From: a virus
Taxonomy: Duplodnaviria > Heunggongvirae > Uroviricota > Caudoviricetes
Reading direction: 5' to 3' (one strand)
Virus record (IMG/VR): IMGVR_UViG_3300037589_000184
Location: 34,523 to 98,522 of that record
DNA length: 64,000 nucleotides
In this document: piece after piece, positions 4,921-63,141 of the stretch
How the letters are laid out: each line of letters starts with the position of its first letter
How positions within the stretch are numbered: the stretch's first letter is position 1
The notes under the pieces: generated by a model
What the model saw: only the letters and a program-made list of their open reading frames with translations
Told to the model about the DNA's origin: nothing
The model's database searches: none
Program-made: the position numbers and the translations under genes

Positions 4921-5083
4921 TCAATAAAGAAAAAAGAACCAAAAAAGAAAGGCACTCTTATACTGGATTCATCTGTGATGAGGCCGGTTTCAAGGAATTG
5001 CTTCGCAATTGCCTGAAAGGCCGAGCCGAAGTTACACGATATCAGTGACAAAATCAAATTTTTAATCAAACACAACAAAAATT

Positions 5084-5731
5084 ATGGCACAGAAAGCAAG
5101 AATACTAGGTTATCTTGGTGATGATAGGTTTGTTATCGGGTTAAAGGAAAACCAACCTTCCGATGGATCCCCTGATCCCATAAAGATAAAATTGGCCCAT
5201 GACTATGTGGAAATAGAGGGTATGTCCAACTTTATGGTAGATGATAGCTCCGATTACAAATCAAGTAATGGAGTATCCAATTGGGTAAAAAGCCGGGCAT
5301 CCATCCAAATAGGTATCCGGGAGTTCAAGGATATCCTTTTGCCCCTGTTCATGAACGCCCATTATCTCTCTGATGAACATTTTAAGATGAGAAAACATGA
5401 GGAGGATGACAAATATTTTGAACGATATGGTCTGGAAAGTCCTAGATGGACAAAGGGAGAAGAATATCCTCCATATACTTTCAATTCCAGTGTGATAGAG
5501 TTCTTCAATGAGAGGACACAACAACAGATGGTGACTTTTCGTAGGGCACACAGTCTTGTATATGAGACTGTCACAAAGGATCTTTTTGATCTTATCCGGC
5601 CACAACTGGAACTCTATAAATCCGAGTGGGACATGAAAAAAGTGATCGGGACCACTGTGATCGAAGAAGAAAAGGTGGATGACAGTGCCGAGATTGTCAA
5701 CGAGGATGAAAACATCCCACCGGAAGCATAG
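5084..5731 (+). CDS. hypothetical protein
   Basis: 215-aa ORF with an ATG start, ending in TAG. Confidence 0.4.
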   Translation: MAQKARILGYLGDDRFVIGLKENQPSDGSPDPIKIKLAHDYVEIEGMSNFMVDDSSDYKSSNGVSNWVKSRASIQIGIREFKDILLPLFMNAHYLSDEHFKMRKHEEDDKYFERYGLESPRWTKGEEYPPYTFNSSVIEFFNERTQQQMVTFRRAHSLVYETVTKDLFDLIRPQLELYKSEWDMKKVIGTTVIEEEKVDDSAEIVNEDENIPPEA

Positions 5732-5752
5732 ATTTCTTTCTTATAGGTATAT

Positions 5753-5787
5753 GGGAACAGGTTTGTTTTGAACCTGTTCCCTTTTAT
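5753..5787 (+). terminator. rho-independent terminator hairpin
   Basis: Perfect 9-bp stem GGGAACAGG/CCTGTTCCC with an 11-nt loop, followed by TTTTAT. Confidence 0.55.
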
Positions 5788-5800
5788 CGTAACTTCCTCC

Positions 5801-5826
5801 CCTCAAGACCCTCACTAATTTATACC
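5801..5826 (+). promoter_or_regulatory. conserved promoter-like motif copy 1 (CCTCAAGACCCTCACTAATTTA), T3-promoter-like core
   Basis: One of three near-identical copies of CTCAARACCCTCACTAATyT. Its core ACCCTCACTAA equals the T3 RNAP promoter core. It sits between a terminator and the lipoprotein gene. Confidence 0.4.
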
Positions 5827-5851
5827 ATAAACATAATTGATAAAAAAGACC

Positions 5852-6454
5852 ATGAAAAAACTCATTATCGTGCCCCTGTTGGCACTTCTTGCATCATGTA
5901 CCATCTCCGAACAGTGTGATGGGTGCAAGGAACCAATCGTACAGACCATTGTGGATACTCTCTACATAGAGACACCACCTGTCATCGACACATTGTATGT
6001 GGAAGTCCCTGTAGTGGAGATCGACACTGTATATGTTGACAATATCATTGTGGATACCCTGTTATGCAAACAAGTGTCCAAAACCTTTGATTTCAAGGAT
6101 TTTCCAAAGGGGTGCACAGATGTCACGCTTGACGGTATTGTCATTGACAGTGATGCACAGTATTCCGTGGTGGACACCTATGCAGGACTAGGACTCTATG
6201 CGGAGGACGGAATCTCATTTGATTTTTCCTCCTATGGAGAGGGTACCGAGCTTGATTATATCTACTATAAGGCCGTGGACTGTCCCGGGGAATACATCTA
6301 TTGGGACAATGGACAGATGGAACTGCCACACAGGTCCTATGGACAACCTGTTTACCTTAACATTGACCAGATCACAGAGGGGTTTTATCTTGATATCAAG
6401 AAAAAGCTCATCCTGTTGGAATTTGGCATAAAAACCTATGAATGTGATGAATAG
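5852..6454 (+). CDS. lipoprotein
   Basis: MKKLIIVPLLALLASCT is a signal peptide with a lipobox. The track ORF starts at a TTG at 5837, and the ATG at 5852 is the likelier start. Confidence 0.45.
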   Translation: MKKLIIVPLLALLASCTISEQCDGCKEPIVQTIVDTLYIETPPVIDTLYVEVPVVEIDTVYVDNIIVDTLLCKQVSKTFDFKDFPKGCTDVTLDGIVIDSDAQYSVVDTYAGLGLYAEDGISFDFSSYGEGTELDYIYYKAVDCPGEYIYWDNGQMELPHRSYGQPVYLNIDQITEGFYLDIKKKLILLEFGIKTYECDE

Positions 6455-7454
6455 ACTCTTTATTATAATGCTCCTGTTTGTGTGCAGCATATCTGCACAG
6501 GAGTTCAAGCCGTGGACATTCGAGCTTGGAACAGGCCTCCACTGGGTGGATGGCCAATGTGACCTTTCATTGGATGACAATACAGTGGATGTAAAAGCAA
6601 GGGCAAGGTACAATTTCAACGAGACCTTCGGCCTACAGTTGTCGGCACAACATTCAGCCCTATCTTTTGAGGGATTTGGAAAAGTGCCATATCAAAGGGC
6701 GGCACTTGGTGTATCGACAAATCTCTGGAACATTCTTGACATACGTTCAAACACGTTCAAGGTACTGATGTACGGGGATGTGGGGTACTCAAGGATGACG
6801 GCAAAGGATTATATCGAGGCACAGAGGATGTTCTCCACTTCATTGTCCATTGCACCTGTTTTCAGGGTCAATGATGACATTTCCATAAAACTTGAGGCCA
6901 CTTCCATAATGAACCATGGAAAACATGCCTCCTTTGATTTCCAATCGGCTACCCAACACACCTTGGTCAATACCCTGCACATAGGGGTCATGTACCACAT
7001 AGGTAAAAAAGGTTCCCCCGCTGATTGGTACAAAAGAAGGGTAAAAGTGGACACTGTTGTGCTTGAGAGGCCCTCCACTGCCGTTGTCGAGAGGACAATA
7101 GTGGAAAAGGAGTGCATCAAATGTGATGCCCCATCCGATATCATGGAACATGTCTATTTCAGGTATGATGTGGACTCCATTGACAAGGATGGCCTTGATG
7201 CACTGCAACATATAGTGGAAGGGTGGAAATCTGGGGACAGTATCACTGTGACAGGTCATGCATGTCCTTCCGGAAATCCCGGGTACAACCTTGACCTTTC
7301 CCGAAGAAGGGCAACAAACGTAAAACAAAAACTACAAAGGGCAGGTATCCCTGAAAGTGCCATCTTACTTGAGTATAAAGGAGAGGACACCAATAAGGGG
7401 AAACATGACCATGATATGGCAAGAAGGGTGGACATTGTCCTGAAACGGAAATGA
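6438..7454 (+). CDS. OmpA-family protein (signal peptide plus C-terminal OmpA peptidoglycan-binding domain)
   Basis: Signal MNRLFIIMLLFVCSISAQ. C-terminus TVTGHACPSGNPGYNLDLSRRRATNV...ARRVDIVL matches the OmpA_C-like motif (TGHTD..G....N..LS..RA). Confidence 0.55.
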   Translation: MNVMNRLFIIMLLFVCSISAQEFKPWTFELGTGLHWVDGQCDLSLDDNTVDVKARARYNFNETFGLQLSAQHSALSFEGFGKVPYQRAALGVSTNLWNILDIRSNTFKVLMYGDVGYSRMTAKDYIEAQRMFSTSLSIAPVFRVNDDISIKLEATSIMNHGKHASFDFQSATQHTLVNTLHIGVMYHIGKKGSPADWYKRRVKVDTVVLERPSTAVVERTIVEKECIKCDAPSDIMEHVYFRYDVDSIDKDGLDALQHIVEGWKSGDSITVTGHACPSGNPGYNLDLSRRRATNVKQKLQRAGIPESAILLEYKGEDTNKGKHDHDMARRVDIVLKRK

Positions 7455-7484
7455 CCCTTCATGGTTGGTTAATTTAGTTGAAAA

Positions 7485-7512
7485 GGCAGATATCTTTATA
7501 TCTGCCTTTTTT
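7485..7512 (+). terminator. rho-independent terminator hairpin
   Basis: GGCAGATAT-CTTT-ATATCTGCC followed by TTTTTT. An A-tract upstream makes it potentially bidirectional. Confidence 0.55.
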
Positions 7513-7528
7513 GTTGATACCTCCCTCA

Positions 7529-7556
7529 CCTCAAAACCCTCACTAATTTAGGGACT
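7529..7556 (+). promoter_or_regulatory. conserved promoter-like motif copy 2 (CCTCAAAACCCTCACTAATTTAGGGA)
   Basis: Same motif as at 5801, immediately after a terminator and before a small gene. It includes a downstream TTTAGGGA reminiscent of the T3/T7 +1 GGGA. Confidence 0.4.
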
Positions 7557-7598
7557 TAGGTGCCGTGCAATCTTTATGGTGCCAAAAAACAGATAGCC

Positions 7599-7817
7599 AT
7601 GACCGAGTTTTTAAGAAAATTGGGCAATAACATAAAACCTGAGAGACAACATATATTGGATGCCAATCAAATGGCGGATGATATATTCTCAAGGGAACCT
7701 GCCCTCCATCTGGAAATGTTCGAGGCCATAGCAAAGAGGCTTGCCGCCAACTATGAGGTTGGACGCAACAATTTTGTAAACTTCAAAAAACCAGACACAG
7801 ATGAAGAAAAAAAGTAA
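7599..7817 (+). CDS. hypothetical small protein
   Basis: The track ORF starts at a GTG at 7560 overlapping the motif. The ATG at 7599 (MTEFLRK...) is the likelier start. Confidence 0.25.
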   Translation: MTEFLRKLGNNIKPERQHILDANQMADDIFSREPALHLEMFEAIAKRLAANYEVGRNNFVNFKKPDTDEEKK

Positions 7818-8044
7818 GTACACGGAATCAGGTGCCCTTGCCTCGTTGAGGAAAAAGGGTGTGGTTCCCGGAAAAAAGAAGAGATTGATCCTGAAAGACT
7901 CCTCTAGGGAGATAGGTTCGGGATCATGGGGAAAATTGGATTTCCTCACAGGAATAGGCTACACCGTTGTGGACAAGAGATCAGGTCAGTGATGGCCCAA
8001 TTCCCATATTGTGTAGAAAGTAGGTGGTTAGGTTTTTTGGGAAC

Positions 8045-8091
8045 AACAGGGCCACTATAAGACCATTTTTAGAAAGGCCCGTGGCCCTGTT
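8045..8091. repeat. perfect 11-bp inverted repeat (AACAGGGCCAC...GTGGCCCTGTT) with 25-nt spacer
   Basis: Seen directly in the intergenic region between the 7992 and 8119 ORFs. No U-tract follows it. Confidence 0.4.
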
Positions 8092-8118
8092 ATATTCAAC
8101 CTTAAAAGACCTTTTACC

Positions 8119-8454
8119 ATGACATTTAGACAATTGCCCAAATTTGTGCCGTACCTCAACCAGAATGGGCATCTATCCATGATAGTGGCCGAACATGGCA
8201 AGACTGCACATATAATGAACCACCATGGCAGTGTATGGTCCCTAAAGAGGGACAGTGCCTATGCCACAAACGTACATCTGTCCACTCCTGATATCACACC
8301 AGAGGAGTTTTTTGATGAAATGCCCCCCAATCTATTGGAAGGGTACAGTTCAAAATATTTCAAAAAGACCTTTGATATGGCAAAAGATGCCTATCTGAAA
8401 TCAAAAGGACAGCCCTTGCTTCCGTGTGCCCATAGATTGTTGTTAATTTGTTGA
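8119..8454 (+). CDS. hypothetical protein
   Basis: 111-aa ORF with an ATG start. Confidence 0.3.
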   Translation: MTFRQLPKFVPYLNQNGHLSMIVAEHGKTAHIMNHHGSVWSLKRDSAYATNVHLSTPDITPEEFFDEMPPNLLEGYSSKYFKKTFDMAKDAYLKSKGQPLLPCAHRLLLIC

Positions 8455-8663
8455 TCATGGACCATAACAACACAACCTATCAAGAGGCCCTGCTCAAGAG
8501 ACTGGAAAATAAGGAACAGTTCTACTTTGAAGCCTATGGTGGCATAGGTAAGGTTCCCTCCCCTGATGCATATTCCATACAGATGGCAATGTACATGAGG
8601 GTACAAAGGGCATTTGCCCATAAAAAATATCGACTATTATTAATCTGTTAAAAACCCGTTGAG

Positions 8664-8960
8664 ATGAAAATTTTGGAAATCCTTTCTCAGGACAAAGAGA
8701 CACTTGAAAAGAAAAAGGCCGAAAGAGTGGCCAAGGCCCTTGCCAGAAAGCAGGAGGCACTTATCGATAAATTGGAGGACCAGAAGGATACCCTCTTGGC
8801 CAAGAAGGACAGTCTGCTGTCCATCACGGTAAGTAGTGTCAACCAAGAGACTTGGAACGATCAGTTGCAAGAAACTCTGGTGGAGCTTACCACGCTCGAT
8901 AAGCAGATCGAGATTGCCAAGAATACCTCCGAGGAATTCTTCTCCGAAACACAGGCATAG
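8664..8960 (+). CDS. hypothetical coiled-coil protein
   Basis: 98 aa rich in K, E and L heptads. Ends in TAG. Confidence 0.3.
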   Translation: MKILEILSQDKETLEKKKAERVAKALARKQEALIDKLEDQKDTLLAKKDSLLSITVSSVNQETWNDQLQETLVELTTLDKQIEIAKNTSEEFFSETQA

Positions 8961-8962
8961 CC

Positions 8963-9493
8963 ATGGCTTCCCTAAAATGCTATCTCTCCGTGTCCAATCT
9001 AGTGGACACGGAGAGAGTGGATCAGGTCTCCAACTTTCTTGCCCCGAAGAACATACAGGTAAGTTTCCATAAGCGTGGAAAGAACTATGATGAATCAAAA
9101 TTGGTGAACTCAGATTTTGTACTGTTCATTCCTTGGGCCAAGACCGTTTCAAAGGACAGGTCACAATCAAAGAAGACATTCGAGAACGTGGTAGGCAAGG
9201 GGCAGTTCGGGGAGGCAACACACTGTTGTATGCTGAACAAGCCTGCTTTTGTCTTCCAAGGGTTCGATGATGATGGACAACTGCTCATGACCAAGCTCTA
9301 TGAAGAGGACCATGAGCACCTTGCCATCATGGAGGACTGGAAGAAGAGATGGGGATGGATAAGGAGCTATGTACGTGGCAATGGCCCCGTGCCACTTATC
9401 CAGTTCTTGGAAGGTTTCTTCGGTTGGTACTCACCTGTACCGGAACAACTTGATCTATTTGACAAGAATAAAAGATTTCTACTACTTTTGTAG
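8963..9493 (+). CDS. hypothetical protein
   Basis: 176-aa ORF ending in TAG. Confidence 0.3.
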   Translation: MASLKCYLSVSNLVDTERVDQVSNFLAPKNIQVSFHKRGKNYDESKLVNSDFVLFIPWAKTVSKDRSQSKKTFENVVGKGQFGEATHCCMLNKPAFVFQGFDDDGQLLMTKLYEEDHEHLAIMEDWKKRWGWIRSYVRGNGPVPLIQFLEGFFGWYSPVPEQLDLFDKNKRFLLLL

Positions 9494-9565
9494 AAGTGTT
9501 CATCGTGGGGAGGGACCTGCTTTCGTCACCCAGTGATGTCTTCCTCCCCTCTTTGAACCTATAAT

Positions 9566-9950
9566 GGGGCATACAGGCTTTGACAGGTGATATGACCTAT
9601 AATGTTCAGCCAAGAGAGATAACTTGTAAAAACTAAGGTGAATTTACTTAAACGGCAACGTAGAAGATCAAATTCAGGCCAACATGGACACAGTCCATGC
9701 AATTTTGGGAAGCGAAGTAGAAGTAGCTGCCTAAATTTGGCAAGGCCCGTACAAGGTCTCTAGGCATCGGCCATTGTACAATTTTAGGTTAAGTGAGTCA
9801 GGCCACTCGACTGGAAGTGGACAGAGGTTTCCATCTTTACTCTGGATCGTACAAGGATGGTGGTGGAACCCAACTTCGGTTGGCCCCTAAGCTGTATAAA
9901 ACATTGTAGTGATTACATTTTGGACCGGGGTTCGATTCCCCGATGCTCCA
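9566..9950 (+). ncRNA. ssrA: tmRNA (ssrA-like transfer-messenger RNA), phage-encoded
   Basis: 5' GGGGCAT pairs with 3' ATGCTCC to form a 7-bp acceptor stem carrying the G3:U70 wobble that is the alanine identity element, followed by discriminator A. The T-arm is CGGGG-TTCGATT-CCCCG. The 5' D-analog GGCTTTGACAGG resembles E. coli GGATTCGACGGG. The overall 3' end GGACCGGGGTTCGATTCCCCGATGCTCCA is close to E. coli GGACGCGGGTTCAACTCCCGCCAGCTCCA. An internal ORF ends ...GSEVEVAA-TAA at 9732-9734. Length is about 385 nt. Confidence 0.6.
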
Positions 9951-10481
9951 CAAAATATGGTGAATGTACATCATCATAGGAGAAAATTGAAGCAGAACAA
10001 AAAGCATAGGGAAGTTCGAAGAAGTTGACGCAGAGAAAGAACAGGCATCCGGATTGACTTTTGAACATCAATGGAACGTGGCTACTTACCACTTCAATTT
10101 TCTCACCTTATTAAAAGTCTGGCCACCCTTTAGGCTGAGTCCAACTTACGTTAGAGTAAGAAGAGGATAGTAATCGGGTGGCACAGCAACAATAGTGAAG
10201 ACCATATCGATCTGATGATACGTAAGCGAGGCTTTCATCTTAACTGGATTGAACTCGATGTGCATGGCAAGCCGTTAAACTCCTCCTCAGGATCAGCACC
10301 CCGAACATCACAATGATCTAGGTCTTTGTGGTCTTCCTATAAAGTATTCAAGATCAAACAGTCATCTGGGACACACTCAGTACCCATAATATAAGACAGC
10401 TTATTGTGGGGAACGTGGACACAGTGGCCAGTGTCATGTCCCGGATACTGTTTGTGTTATTATGGACAGTTCTGTCCTTAT

Positions 10482-10506
10482 CTCAAAACCCTCACTAATC
10501 TGGGGA
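10482..10506 (+). promoter_or_regulatory. conserved promoter-like motif copy 3 (CTCAAAACCCTCACTAATCTGGGGA)
   Basis: Third copy of the motif, preceded by a small hairpin (GGACAG..CTGTCC), upstream of the 10740 gene and the helicase gene. Confidence 0.35.
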
Positions 10507-10739
10507 ACAACATAAAGGAAAAGGCCCGGAGGTATGTGAAAGGCTGTGAGAACCATGTATACGAAAAATGTCACGGTACCCTGTGGACATGTAGTAGGTA
10601 CAAAGGGTGTCCAATCCGGTTAGGTGGAGATAAGACCATCGATGGAACATGTTTTCTTATCCATGTTCCCCTTTTCCTTTTCAATTTGGATTTAATTATC
10701 ATACATATTTTTATTAACATTTTTTAAAAGCGTTTTCAA

Positions 10740-11366
10740 ATGGAAACTACAGCAACAGAAAGCAGAATCAGGAAGGAAGTGTCCAAAAGTACACTGGACG
10801 TAAGCCGTGTGTACAGCAGTGATTATCAGAAAGAGGGCACCCAGACTGCCGAGCTTCGCCAGAAAGTGACCACTAAGTCCTTTTATCCCACAAAGGCCAT
10901 TGCCAATGACAAGCAGGACAATGTCTTCGGTATGGAGGAATTCGGGTTCGAGGAACAGGAGTATGTCAACGAGGAGAACCGTGTAGCTTGGATCGATGTC
11001 CCCGTAGGGACCACAATCGAACAGGTGAAGGCAAAATTGGCTGCCCATCCAACTGCGGGTCTGTACAGGATATTGGCCAACAAGCCCATCCTTACGGACA
11101 ACCAGAAGTATGCAGTGGAGAACAACATTGCCAGTTATGACACCTTTGCCAATAGCCAAGTGGTAAGGTTCCCGGAAGGTGCCGAGAGAGCAGGTGAACT
11201 TGCCCTTGACCAAAATGGCAAGCCACAGTACCGTGCAATCTTCTTCAAGAAGGAAGATCCTGTGGACCAAGATCTCCGTACCATGGACGAGGTTTTCTAT
11301 GCATCTCCCCAAATCCAAGAGGAGCTTAACGAGAACCCACATGTGGTAACAGGTCAGCAACTTTAG
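10740..11366 (+). CDS. hypothetical protein
   Basis: 208-aa ORF with an ATG start. The antisense 222-aa ORF is judged spurious because it is rich in L, C, H and W. Confidence 0.4.
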   Translation: METTATESRIRKEVSKSTLDVSRVYSSDYQKEGTQTAELRQKVTTKSFYPTKAIANDKQDNVFGMEEFGFEEQEYVNEENRVAWIDVPVGTTIEQVKAKLAAHPTAGLYRILANKPILTDNQKYAVENNIASYDTFANSQVVRFPEGAERAGELALDQNGKPQYRAIFFKKEDPVDQDLRTMDEVFYASPQIQEELNENPHVVTGQQL

Positions 11367-41516: not shown

Positions 41517-41588
41517 GGCCCGTTAGCTCAGTGGCTAGAGCAATGGTCTCTAAAACCGTGGTCATGGGTTCAATTCCCATACGGGCCT
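41517..41588 (+). tRNA. tRNA with anticodon CUA (amber/UAG suppressor tRNA); amino-acid identity undetermined
   Basis: Full cloverleaf: acceptor GGCCCGT/ACGGGCC, U8, D-stem GCTC/GAGC with an AGTGGCTA loop, anticodon stem ATGGT/ACCGT, loop C-U-CUA-A-A (U33, anticodon CUA, A37), 4-nt variable loop, T-stem ATGGG/CCCAT with loop TTCAATT, and discriminator U. Confidence 0.85.
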
Positions 41589-41661
41589 CTTAACATTAAT
41601 TAATTGTATTATGAAAAAAGATACAGAATACTAGGTAAACAAAGGGGACTTTATCACAGTA

Positions 41662-41964
41662 GTGGTAAAGGAACACCTCACACCGGGCCAAAAAGTGGTC
41701 CAGACCTCACATGCACTTGCTGACTTTGCAGTGCAGTTTCCGCAAGAATTTACATCATGGCAGAGCAGTTCCAACTATCTATGTTGTCTGGAACAGCCTG
41801 ATTTTAAGTTTGATAGGCTCATAGATCTTCTTGAGCTGTTAGAGATCAAGTATTCCGTCTTCTACGAACCTGACATTGACCAAAATACTGCCGTTGCAGT
41901 AGGACCATTGAACAGGACAGAACACAGAAAAATCTTTAAAAATTTTAAACTTACATTATCATGA
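41662..41964 (+). CDS. peptidyl-tRNA hydrolase, PTH2 family
   Basis: PGQKVVQTSHALADFA matches the PTH2 GK[IV]AAQ.SHA motif. C-terminus NTAVAVGPL matches the T[VI]L.IGP motif. The track start is a GTG, and an in-frame TAG at 41632 limits any N-terminal extension. Confidence 0.55.
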   Translation: MVKEHLTPGQKVVQTSHALADFAVQFPQEFTSWQSSSNYLCCLEQPDFKFDRLIDLLELLEIKYSVFYEPDIDQNTAVAVGPLNRTEHRKIFKNFKLTLS

Positions 41965-42245
41965 AAAAATTCGAATTGATCAGAACGGAGGTAAAAAGAG
42001 TGGCAGAACAACAGAGACCACTCAAGTTGCAAAGGAAGACCAAGACCTTTAAAGGAAAAAGGGAGGTCGAGGCACCAAGGGCGGCATGGCTCGTAAAGGA
42101 CAACAAAACCTATTTGATGCATCTTTACCATGCCTATGCAAAGATGAGGGGAATCGAGCTTGAGGCCCCGAAGAAAAAAGGGCTTTCAGCCGATATGGTA
42201 AGAAAGCTCATGGAGAAATTTGCTCCGAAGGTAGAAACAGTTTAA
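41961..42245 (+). CDS. hypothetical basic protein
   Basis: 94-aa ORF. Confidence 0.3.
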   Translation: MKKFELIRTEVKRVAEQQRPLKLQRKTKTFKGKREVEAPRAAWLVKDNKTYLMHLYHAYAKMRGIELEAPKKKGLSADMVRKLMEKFAPKVETV

Positions 42246-42268: not shown

Positions 42269-42308
42269 CGGGCCAAGGGAATTTACGGGACCTTGGCCCG
42301 TTCTTTTT
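42269..42308 (+). terminator. rho-independent terminator hairpin
   Basis: 10-bp stem CGGGCCAAGG/CCTTGGCCCG followed by TTCTTTTT. Confidence 0.5.
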
Positions 42309-42323
42309 AATGAACAATGTTAC

Positions 42324-60936: not shown

Positions 60937-63141
60937 TTATTTATTGATTATGGTGTTCAACAACCCTTTCATCCTTGGGTCGTCGAGACTTTCGGTGATA
61001 TATCCCCCCTGTCCATTCGGGATAAGGAGTTCCTGTCTTTTGAGGCTTCCATCGGAGTTCCTCACGTTCTTGACCTTTACCCCCTGTCCTCCGGGAATGG
61101 TGACCTCGGAGGCATTGCTTATCTTGGTAAGGTAATAGTTTGTCCTGAGCATGTCACTGTTGACGTTCTCAAAACCTTTTAATTTTGTACTGGTGATGTC
61201 ATCTATCTTGGCAATCCTTTTCTCCCCCCTGAAATCGACTATCATCCCAAGTTCAAGCTTTCTGTCATCATCATAGGAAGTGGCAGGTGCAATGGATTCA
61301 GGGGATACCGAGAAACCTATATACCCAGAACCATCCACCATTTTGTACCTTACCTCATATTCATCCGGGGTGATCTGTAGGCCTTCCTTGTTCTTGAGTC
61401 CGGGAGTGACATGTTCATAAGGGATCTTTACAGGTTCCCTCTCCACTATCCCCTTTCTCAACATCTGGTCAAGGCTCATATTGGAGATGTCCACTTCCCT
61501 TCCATTCTTGTCAGTTGCAGTGGCCCCTTGTGGAAAATCTATGTTGTACAACCTGTACATACCACTTTCCACTATCCTTTTTGAAAAAGAGGCTGCCTCT
61601 TTCGGAGTAACACCCGTGCCCTCCCAAGTAAATTTCTGTGGTACTGAGATCTTTTCGGTCTCGTTAAGGTATCTATTGAAATCCGGTTCCTGTTGTTGTA
61701 CATATTCTTCCAATGTGAGGCCCTGTGGGGACCTGTTGTTGTATTCTTTTTCCTTTTCCCTTTCCCAATCCGATCTTATTGCCTGTATTGCCGACATGTT
61801 CAACCTCTCCTCTTTGTAACCATCCTCAAGCTTTGCTATTGTGCCGGACTCGAACATAGGGGTACCATCGGGATTTTTCAAGCTGTACAGATATGAGAAG
61901 TTTCCCTTCTCTATGGCCACTTCGGCCTCCAATGGAAGATTGGTGTCCATACCAAGGCCAAGTTCCCTCTTGACAATCTCACGGGCATCGTCCTTGATGT
62001 TCTGCATCTTCTTCTGGGTGAACAGGATGTTCTGGTTATACTCCTCTATATTGCCCCCTGCAACACTGTTGAGGGTACTGTTGGAGACATACTGTACGAA
62101 ATCATCTTGTTTATTGTCCTCCCATTCCTTATATTTTTTCTTGTTCTCAAGCTCTTGGTTCTTGAGGGCAAATGGGCTGGCCTTTATTCTTTCGGAACTC
62201 TCAGTGCTCTCAAATCCGAATTTTTCCACTCCTGCCCTAAATGCACTTCCAAGAATATTGTCACTGAACCCCAGTGTGGGCACCTTTACCACATTCCCTT
62301 TGTCATCCACCATTTCCACATCCCTGATGGATGAGATGGGGTTTATGTTCCCGTCAGTGGAAATTCCATTGAACCCGTCCATTCCCAGTTCCTCCCTTTG
62401 TAGGATGGCCCTTTGCAGTTCGGTATCGGCATTGAAGGAGTTGGTAAGGATATCATTGAGTTCCCCTGCCGTCATAGTCTTTGTCCCCTCTTTCGTGGTC
62501 ACTATCCATCCTCCTGAATTGACATCCCTTTCAACTGATTGTGCATCCGGGATGGCATCCTTCAACCTTTCGTCCACCCATTCATTGAGATTGCCAAGAC
62601 CATGTACACTGTTTGCGGAGTAGGGGGTGTAGTCGTTGTTGCCCTTGTATGATACCGTTCCAGATTCCTCAAGGTTCCTTCTTCTCAACCTTCTCAGATA
62701 GTCATCCGTATAGAGCTGTGGATCTTTTTTCTGTAGTTCCTTTGCATCCTTCCACCACTGGGCATCCTCATTGAAACGTTTTTCTATTGCGGCCACCTCA
62801 CCTGTACCGAAATCGGATCTTATCTGTCTTCCAAGGTTTCTGATGTCCCCAAGCTTTCTTGAGTATTCCAAGGGGTTTTTCTGTATCTCCGATACAAGGT
62901 CGTCCACCTGTCCCTCATAGCCTTGTACTATCTCCCGTAATCTTGGAGTATCGGCAACCAAGGAATTGGCATCTAATTTATCATATAGGGAGACTGCCGT
63001 ATCTATGGTATCATCCACATTTTTATCTGCGTTCAGGACCACCTTTGACATAAGGTCATAGGGGAGTTCCAACATTTTGTCGGCCACGAAGTTTGATTGG
63101 GCCGTTTGATAGAATCTAGCCATTTTTCTCTTCCTTGACAC
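60937..63141 (-). CDS. large virion-associated hypothetical protein (734 aa)
   Basis: Its TAA stop lies 1 nt before the ATG of the 4176-aa gene. No recognisable motif. Confidence 0.55.
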   Translation of the reverse strand: MSRKRKMARFYQTAQSNFVADKMLELPYDLMSKVVLNADKNVDDTIDTAVSLYDKLDANSLVADTPRLREIVQGYEGQVDDLVSEIQKNPLEYSRKLGDIRNLGRQIRSDFGTGEVAAIEKRFNEDAQWWKDAKELQKKDPQLYTDDYLRRLRRRNLEESGTVSYKGNNDYTPYSANSVHGLGNLNEWVDERLKDAIPDAQSVERDVNSGGWIVTTKEGTKTMTAGELNDILTNSFNADTELQRAILQREELGMDGFNGISTDGNINPISSIRDVEMVDDKGNVVKVPTLGFSDNILGSAFRAGVEKFGFESTESSERIKASPFALKNQELENKKKYKEWEDNKQDDFVQYVSNSTLNSVAGGNIEEYNQNILFTQKKMQNIKDDAREIVKRELGLGMDTNLPLEAEVAIEKGNFSYLYSLKNPDGTPMFESGTIAKLEDGYKEERLNMSAIQAIRSDWEREKEKEYNNRSPQGLTLEEYVQQQEPDFNRYLNETEKISVPQKFTWEGTGVTPKEAASFSKRIVESGMYRLYNIDFPQGATATDKNGREVDISNMSLDQMLRKGIVEREPVKIPYEHVTPGLKNKEGLQITPDEYEVRYKMVDGSGYIGFSVSPESIAPATSYDDDRKLELGMIVDFRGEKRIAKIDDITSTKLKGFENVNSDMLRTNYYLTKISNASEVTIPGGQGVKVKNVRNSDGSLKRQELLIPNGQGGYITESLDDPRMKGLLNTIINK

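Follow-up and report, generated by a model that had tools for sequence, protein, structure and literature searches.

What does a suppressor tRNA decode in a phage whose other genes appear to be readable in the standard code? The question is raised by a 64-kb stretch of a crAss-like phage genome (positions 34,523 to 98,522 of IMG/VR record IMGVR_UViG_3300037589_000184; the whole of this stretch, at 44.6% G+C, is called the window below), in which a tRNA with the anticodon CUA lies directly upstream of a gene for a protein related to peptidyl-tRNA hydrolases of the PTH2 type. Our analysis suggests that the tRNA acts on this very neighbour. The coding frame of the PTH2-like gene is interrupted by a single TAG at codon 8, a stop is kept at this place in nearly all homologues, and the type of the stop follows the anticodon of the accompanying tRNA. 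The reading that we favour, with a probability of about 60%, is that the gene is stop-gated, that the suppressor tRNA opens it, and that it supplies a hydrolase when suppression is on.

The gene was initially annotated as an open reading frame (ORF) of 100 amino acids with a GTG start, at 41662-41964 on the plus strand, containing PGQKVVQTSHALA and AVAVGPL. The ORF and both motifs exist, but the start was wrongly placed: the coding frame extends back through a TAG at 41632-41634, its sole interruption, to an ATG at 41611, 21 nt past the end of the tRNA. Translation from this ATG gives MKKDTEY-stop-VNKGDFITVVVKEHLTPGQKVVQTSHA..., and the full-length PTH2-like protein has 117 amino acids. Both ARAGORN and Rfam bear out the earlier placement of a CUA suppressor tRNA upstream of the ORF, at 41517-41589, and the reported adjacency is real, the measured gap between tRNA and GTG being 72 nt and not 74 nt. 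The core of the unit reads as follows.

41517 to 41589, plus strand: suppressor tRNA, anticodon CUA in the loop CUCUAAA, CCA not encoded (ARAGORN; Rfam RF00005, 67.5 bits).
41611 to 41631, plus strand: leader of the PTH2-like coding sequence, ATG and six codons, MKKDTEY (MKKDTGY in the homologue of locus L007).
41632 to 41634, plus strand: in-frame TAG, codon 8, followed by GTA; candidate gate for tRNA(CUA).
41635 to 41964, plus strand: PTH2-fold domain (VNKGDFITVVVKEHL...KLTLS) with TGA stop; the ORF at 41662-41964 is its 5'-truncated form.

The sequence VNKGDFITVV, between the TAG and the GTG at 41662, corresponds to strand beta1 of the PTH2 fold and is kept in homologues. That GTG is codon 18 and lies in the middle of beta1, such that a product initiated there would lose half of the strand. 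Homologues in the databases, 113-116 amino acids long, start with MK..Q(V/I)..GDF.T....DL, where the Q is the code-15 translation of TAG; the encoding DNA reads TAG and does not match the protein query at this position. Standard-code gene callers systematically truncate the gene, as in the 100-residue call here, in CBB_406 of Pectobacterium phage CBB and in gp293 of Tenacibaculum phage pT24. Apart from the stop, 24 invariant alignment columns mark the gene as clearly subject to purifying selection. RNA folding around the TAG is not unusually strong (z -1.45), and an Rfam search between the tRNA and the PTH2-like gene found no hepatitis delta virus-like or theta ribozyme and no other family.

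The tRNA(CUA) has a canonical cloverleaf, the 'Pyl' label given by ARAGORN merely reflecting the anticodon, and its nearest typed tRNAs are spread over 15 isotypes. Pyrrolysine decoding was considered and rejected, as the cloverleaf is canonical and scores 67.5 bits with the general tRNA model, which is not the picture of an atypical tRNA(Pyl). The Pfam labels of neighbouring genes include neither pylS nor pylBCD, a statement confined to these labels, as the genome was not searched exhaustively.

To what extent is the stop shared by relatives? Viral and metagenomic loci were collected without reference to the N-terminus, 7 from IMG/VR and 25 from metagenomes for a close 'SNYLCCLE' subfamily and 80 from IMG/VR, many of them on contigs of 100-675 kb, for a distant subfamily 35-45% identical to the window protein. 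From 109 of these loci we surveyed 92 distinct proteins. In 90 of the 92 genes an ATG is followed by 0-8 further codons and then by a stop just before beta1 (1-9 leader codons when the ATG is counted). The stop stands 18-26 codons ahead of the Q of the invariant Q..HA motif, and the feature persists down to 35% protein identity. Two codons is the commonest leader length and the leader sequences are not conserved, the stop following MKKDTGY in L007, MK in L011, MM in L012 and MKNK in L013, and standing at the same aligned place in L017-L023. Nine loci from genome collections (contigs of metagenome-assembled genomes) were kept outside the survey, and eight of them have the same leader with an adjoining tRNA(CUA). 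No other in-frame stop occurs in the 92 genes, whether at the invariant or at other Gln positions, and a canonical start codon after the leader stop is mostly far downstream or absent. These alignments indicate that the leader stop is a family-wide, position-specific conserved feature. As the tail around it is disordered and not conserved, it is apparently the stop, and not the amino acid inserted there, that is under selection.

The type of the stop is equally distinctive. Leader stops are TAG in 86 genes, TAA in four and TGA in two, one of the TGA codons (L085) being merely the upstream frame boundary of an ungated gene. The same genes terminate in TAA (52), TGA (34) or TAG (3; n = 89), a composition different from that of the leader stops (Fisher's exact p = 5e-40), and long ORFs in the neighbourhood likewise end mostly in TAA (286 of 432, with 99 TGA and 47 TAG). 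The base that follows the leader stop is a purine in 91 of 92 cases (A 68, G 23, C 1, T 0); a purine after an amber codon reportedly favours suppression, in work of 1983 attributed to Bossi and to Miller and Albertini. Shine-Dalgarno motifs are lacking in most of these phages; 11 of 90 genes have one before the leader ATG, and 3 of 90 have one ahead of the first codon past the stop.

A suppressor tRNA matching the leader stop was found in the fetched DNA (about 3 kb on either side) of 68 of the 92 loci and a mismatching one in none; the 24 loci in which no suppressor tRNA was found are often short contigs. In 18 of 19 close-subfamily loci the tRNA is upstream, with a median of 46 nt between its end and the stop; in the distant subfamily it is mostly about 1 kb downstream. 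When the stop changes, the anticodon changes with it. L022 and L038 begin with ATG AAA AAA GGA TAA and have a tRNA with the anticodon UUA about 50 nt upstream, and L045 and L047 begin with MKEKEFT-TAA and have, 460 nt downstream, a tRNA whose 8-nt anticodon loop GUUUUAGU contains UUA:

L045, 3786 to 3859: tRNA with the 8-nt loop GUUUUAGU (Rfam 55-56 bits; ARAGORN names no anticodon).
L047, 1854 to 1927: tRNA with the same loop, at the same range of Rfam scores and again with no anticodon named by ARAGORN.

The functional tie between gene and suppressor tRNA that the initial annotation had proposed from their proximity is thus closer than proximity, as the in-frame stop is conserved and its type tracks the anticodon.

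The arrangement also occurs in cultured phages. In pT24 the gene begins with MK-TAG-ITKNS..., an annotated tRNA-Sup lies 2.5 kb upstream, and the deposited gene starts downstream and is truncated. In CBB the motif AAGAGG and an 8-nt spacer precede ATG GCA CAA TAG AAT, and the deposited CBB_406 is truncated as well; because AAGAGG stands 8 nt before the leader ATG and not before the post-TAG codon, this Shine-Dalgarno sequence serves the leader ATG. Mycobacteriophages Bxz1 (L134, 2965-2973) and Phabba (L135, 2968-2976) have (A/G)TG-TAG-GTG between the Shine-Dalgarno sequence and the start of the PTH2 gene, with a tRNA of CUA-type loop 130-300 nt downstream that is annotated as 'tRNA-OTHER' in Bxz1 and as tRNA-Arg(tct) in Phabba. 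In phages RAS14, XacN1 (ORF364) and Aeromonas phage 65 the PTH2 domain is fused to other domains and there is no stop. A separate arrangement was observed in the Prevotella phage Lak-B1 (L139), where a tRNA with the anticodon UUA (2338-2410) lies 600 nt upstream of a PTH2-like gene and three in-frame TAA codons (2878-2902) precede the first ATG of that gene.

Genes of this type had been taken to be unusual in phage genomes, a view that does not hold: 210-242 deposited phage genomes contain them by tblastn, 1826 relatives (representative clusters) emerged when 1.84 billion representative proteins were searched with a profile, and they have been described before (PMC5966550). Cellular genomes yielded nine loci in 185,579, mostly on phage-like contigs, and the family is essentially viral. 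No deposited phage matched 41000-43600 of the window by megablast.

Is the TAG simply a symptom of a recoded genome? The phage, with a genome of 98.3-98.4 kb, is crAss-like, its flank encoding CrAss_Ring_1 and crAss_MUZ (1843 amino acids) and the window holding genes for 4176 and 1549 amino acids. None of the long ORFs of the 64-kb window contains an in-frame TAG, and the flanks of 9.5 kb and 10 kb, with the Ring, MUZ, 485-residue, 734-residue and amidase genes, are uninterrupted under the standard code. In at least 83 of the 98 kb, no other gene needs TAG read-through, and the PTH2-like gene is the only one in the window with an ATG-x-TAG leader on the coding strand. Genome-wide TAG recoding (code 15) was therefore rejected for this phage, in which tRNA(CUA) is present but the long ORFs of window and flanks are free of in-frame TAG.

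The identity of the protein needed more care. PF01981 is its only meaningful Pfam match, and the match exists as the initial annotation had anticipated (E 6-8e-4), but at 20.1 bits for the 100-residue ORF and 20.5 bits for the 117-residue form it falls below the gathering score of 23. Among PHROGs it matches phrog_1866 (function not known; E 3e-9), and NCBIfam gave no useful match. The relatives are clearer: 54 of 57 sampled match PF01981 (best E 1.2e-12), and the family profile finds seven distinct sequences of solved PTH2 chains, with E from 1.9e-11 (2ZV3) to 1.7e-5, the further chains being 1RZW/3ERJ, 1WN2, 1Q7S, 1RLK and 1XTY. P0002, a homologue with 57% identity to the window protein, was modelled with AlphaFold; the model is of moderate quality (pLDDT 64, pTM 0.57) and has the order beta-alpha-beta-alpha-beta-beta-alpha-beta around a four-stranded sheet, as expected for PTH2. 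Its residues 1-12, within which the stop site falls, are disordered (pLDDT below 50), and residues 15-19 form beta1. A Foldseek search of the PDB with this model returned PTH2 chains as its nine best matches (TM 0.57-0.62), the tenth being the uncharacterised 2gax, so that structure prediction agrees with the fold first assigned.

With the Pth2 enzymes of archaea and eukaryotes (PF01981; 2ZV3, 1XTY, 1Q7S, 3ERJ, 1RLK) the family shares a size of about 115 amino acids, the order of secondary structure, Q..HA and, ahead of the last strands, an acidic motif. Q..HA, a W, an S/N position, E-P-D and a T are invariant across the family. The phage proteins differ from Pth2 in that the position of the GK lysine is variable, a Glu stands opposite the Asp of the DAG motif, a loop is deleted and an in-frame stop stands at the N-terminus; the invariant Glu of EPD aligns with the Asp of the D-A-G-x-T motif, and the Asp of EPD lies two residues further on. 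Membership of the PTH2 superfamily is thus established by profile and fold for a divergent protein, whereas the earlier identification holds neither for the single sequence at the Pfam cut-off nor for the GK lysine. As this lysine is not conserved, we can only infer a peptidyl-tRNA hydrolase activity, which is plausible. We also observed repeated fusions of the PTH2-like domain, at one end or the other, with phrog_14850, an uncharacterised HD-like domain that scores a mere 15 bits with PF01966, in L133 (pT24), L132 (Stenotrophomonas phage RAS14), L137 (XacN1 ORF364), P0029 and P0037.

Three further elements of the window complete the picture.

41961 to 42245, plus strand: ORF94, conserved partner of 94 amino acids, its ATG overlapping the TGA of the PTH2-like gene (ATGA).
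42270 to 42311, plus strand: terminator-like hairpin (GGGCCAAGG...CCTTGGCCC) and T-run, closing the unit of tRNA, PTH2-like gene and ORF94.
9566 to 9951, plus strand: phage transfer-messenger RNA (tmRNA) with the tag GNVEDQIQANMDTVHAILGSEVEVAA (ARAGORN; Rfam RF00023, 65.7 bits against a cut-off of 47).

ORF94 is found at the same position in most close-subfamily loci and in many distant ones, and 442 homologues were collected; the ATGA overlap probably couples its translation to that of the PTH2-like gene. The structure model of ORF94 is a helical hairpin (pLDDT 87.6) with no specific fold match. The terminator scan marked the inner stem 42285-42301 followed by TCTTTTTAAT, and it found no terminator-like site on the plus strand between the tRNA and ORF94. 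The idea, also raised in the initial annotation, that the phage may counter host defences which cleave tRNAs gains no support here, and PADLOC returned no match. The tmRNA is present at 9.6 kb, as initially annotated, and thus in the same genome but 32 kb from the PTH2-like gene. Its co-occurrence with such a gene, also suggested earlier, is seen again within 2.5 kb in two jumbo-phage loci, where a tmRNA (L052, 621-973; L054, 808-1159) stands about 2 kb upstream of a gated PTH2-like gene.

Taking as established the anatomy of the unit, the homology and fold of the protein, the position of the stop, its bias to TAG, its purine context and its match with the anticodon, one may propose the following mechanism. 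Termination by a release factor at the UAG would yield no more than a heptapeptide, and no in-frame start past the UAG keeps beta1. When the phage tRNA(CUA) decodes the UAG, the full PTH2-fold protein of 117 amino acids would be produced, and probably ORF94 too, by way of the ATGA overlap. Protein output would then be a direct read-out of suppressor tRNA activity, in the manner of a feed-forward gate. The protein most probably hydrolyses tRNA esters, either peptidyl-tRNA or N-blocked aminoacyl-tRNA. Suppression of UAG may provoke drop-off and non-stop events, and the hydrolase would recycle the tRNAs lost in this way. The enzyme would act together with the phage tmRNA, because read-through of UAG should raise the frequency of both kinds of event.

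Several observations weigh against this proposal, and some of them suit an alternative in which the TAG is the true terminator of a tiny leader ORF and ribosomes make the PTH2-like protein without need of suppression, by starting or restarting past the stop (at GTG 41662 in this phage, at ATT or GTG in others). The leaders are very short, with a mode of two codons; ATT, a weak non-canonical start, directly follows the stop in 49 of the 92 genes; and standard-code gene callers begin at GTG 41662. In Bxz1 and Phabba, moreover, a Shine-Dalgarno sequence stands 7 nt before the GTG that follows the TAG in (A/G)TG-TAG-GTG, and the annotated genes start at this GTG, so that initiation after the stop is possible in some lineages and the case of these two phages is ambiguous. 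The window gene is unlike them, as with a GTG so well served read-through may be unneeded in Bxz1 and Phabba, whereas its own codon after the TAG is GTA, which is not a start, and its GTG at 41662 cuts away half of beta1. In 41 of the 92 genes, neither ATT nor any canonical start follows the stop directly (the commonest codons there are GTA, GTT and ACA), and the residues between stop and beta1 are kept as protein sequence. A plain terminator would also leave unexplained why 93% of leader stops are TAG when ordinary stops are mostly TAA (52 of 89 at the ends of these genes, 286 of 432 in neighbours), and a switch of the stop to TAA beside a UAA-reading tRNA would be unexpected. We consider this alternative improbable. 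Far more improbable still is a neutral origin, by which the TAG would be one more sense codon of a TAG-reassigned phage, or the mark of a decaying pseudogene, with no gating at all. Many relatives do come from large phages that probably use code 15, and TAG is read as Gln in crAss-like phages by metaproteomics (PMC9523058). Yet each gene has exactly one stop, always in the N-terminal tail and never at Gln positions in 92 genes; it persists to 35% identity, with TAA and TGA versions at the same site; the rest of the gene is under purifying selection; and this phage has no other in-frame TAG in at least 83 kb. Neither alternative readily accounts for the preponderance of TAG, for the change to TAA beside a UAA-reading tRNA, for post-stop codons that are not starts or for the lack of recoding in this genome. 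Other facts tell against the stop-gated hydrolase without favouring either of them. L040 (TGA) and L061 (TAA) have no suppressor tRNA in the DNA covered, and no CUA tRNA is present among 25 tRNAs in 20 kb around the TAG-gated genes of L013, L014 and L016. XacN1 has genes for tRNA(CUA), yet no stop interrupts its HD-PTH2 fusion, and the targets of these tRNAs are not explained by a stop-gated gene. About 15 kb of the present genome lie outside the examined sequence and may hold other TAG-containing genes. Finally, read-through is inferred from sequence, as are the enzymatic activity and its purpose.

Two other possibilities accept the gate and question the function. The gating may be real and the protein no peptidyl-tRNA hydrolase, the PTH2 fold having been put to another substrate or to a binding role (another ester at the tRNA end, or ORF94 or the HD-like domain as partner). 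The position of the GK lysine, which is reportedly catalytic in Sulfolobus Pth2, is variable in the family by HMMER alignment (the window protein has Q there, and Y, Q, A or L are found in the family as a whole), and the 4-residue loop after the acidic motif is absent, so that catalysis could differ or be lost; both features count against the hydrolase. The window protein falls under the Pfam cut-off, fusion to the HD-like domain phrog_14850 is recurrent and ORF94 looks like an obligate partner. Q..HA, the acidic EPD and the T and W residues are nevertheless invariant across the family, and the genes lie in tRNA arrays, sometimes with tmRNA; depositors and PMC5966550 call the relatives peptidyl-tRNA hydrolase, though by annotation only. 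On balance we regard a non-hydrolase as unlikely, if the most serious competitor. Somewhat less likely again is that the PTH2-like protein acts on the ester of the suppressor tRNA itself (aminoacyl- or peptidyl-tRNA(CUA)) and caps suppression at a set level by negative feedback. The evidence for gating serves this idea equally. The tRNA is very near the gene: 21 nt separate it from the ATG here, and in the close subfamily its median distance to the stop is 46 nt. That the pair persists where at least 83 kb of the genome hold no further recoded gene suits a tRNA regulator better than a general housekeeping enzyme; the logic would be analogous to the autoregulation of release factor 2 (RF2). Against such feedback, the sequence gives no sign of specificity for one tRNA, canonical Pth2 enzymes act generally, and the tRNA of the distant subfamily mostly stands some 1 kb from the gene, inside arrays of many tRNAs. 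Such an array was also observed around the TAG-gated gene of L014 (a 78-kb contig), where 25 tRNAs with no detected CUA tRNA occupy 4990-11107 and the tRNA directly upstream of the gene is a Glu(UUC) tRNA missed by ARAGORN.

The stop-gated hydrolase that we favour recalls known systems without coinciding with any of them. In prfB, the gene for RF2, an early in-frame UGA ties synthesis of the release factor to stop decoding through a +1 frameshift. The PTH2-like gene resembles it in that an early in-frame stop, here TAG at codon 8, would make the synthesis of a translation factor depend on the decoding of that stop; it differs in keeping to one frame, in relying on a tRNA as decoder and in encoding a PTH2-fold protein, not a release factor. 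A bypass of the prfB type by +1 frameshifting was rejected, as the conserved protein continues in the same frame. The bar minigenes of phage lambda (AUG AUA UAA) are ORFs of about two codons that cause peptidyl-tRNA drop-off, upon which cells depend on Pth. Leaders of the form MK-stop, MT-stop and MM-stop, common in the PTH2-like family, are reminiscent of them, whereas the leader in the window has seven codons, its frame continues into a conserved protein and its TAG is matched to a suppressor tRNA.

Among phages, stop-codon recoding has been hypothesised to time late or lytic genes, and Jade phages carry a 'code change module' (Borges et al., bioRxiv 10.1101/2021.08.26.457843). As in those phages, a phage suppressor tRNA would here permit translation of a gene with an in-frame stop, and modules of translation genes accompany the tRNA. 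Whereas the phages of Borges et al. have many stops in structural and lysis genes and keep their code-change genes in the standard code, the phage studied here has just one such stop, fixed in position within a small gene related to translation, and no detectable recoding elsewhere. Peptidyl-tRNA hydrolase and tmRNA are unmentioned by Borges et al. (bioRxiv 10.1101/2021.08.26.457843); the papers on alternative codes in the library searched do not mention peptidyl-tRNA hydrolase, and we found no paper pairing the two topics, nor did we find a publication describing an in-frame stop in PTH2-like genes or their dependence on a suppressor tRNA. The genes as such are familiar. Peptidyl-tRNA hydrolases are routinely listed in jumbo phages, and cluster C mycobacteriophages carry PTH2-like genes, tmRNA and release factor 1 within tRNA arrays (PMC5966550). 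The PTH2 genes of these Bxz1-like phages and of jumbo phages are homologous to the family described here, at 30-35% identity, and lie among tRNA genes. PTH2 genes near tRNAs and tmRNA were therefore already known, and what appears to be new is a stop-codon gate that is matched to an anticodon and kept in more than a hundred phage lineages.

A stop-gated gene would give phage suppressor tRNAs a concrete target in genomes that otherwise follow the standard code. 'Non-functioning' suppressor tRNAs in unrecoded Zeta crAss-like phages are an open problem (PMC12386605), and the targets of the tRNA(CUA) of XacN1 were untraceable (PMC5852040). The gate would also be a simple switch in translation that connects suppressor tRNAs, a PTH2-family protein and ribosome rescue; such a switch could be adapted to report suppression, and it may bear on how code changes in phages begin. 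More speculatively, and with rather less than even confidence, the stop-gated PTH2-like gene and ORF94 may be a conserved and possibly the original client of phage suppressor tRNAs, a portable 'suppression sensor' found from crAss-like to jumbo phages. If so, such a sensor would explain the suppressor tRNAs of unrecoded phages, the puzzle posed in PMC12386605 and PMC5852040, and would mark a first step toward genome-wide reassignment of a stop codon.

Two minor features of the window deserve mention. Between 3731 and 5083 there are 1.35 kb with no coding-strand ORF of at least 90 amino acids; reading TAG as sense gives no rescue, and no Rfam family is found there at E of 0.1 or below. About eight coding-strand genes of the window end in TAG, at 5729, 6452, 9491, 11364, 19722, 21481 and 24811 on the plus strand and at 63118 on the minus strand, and read-through at these stops would add 5-36 codons to their products.

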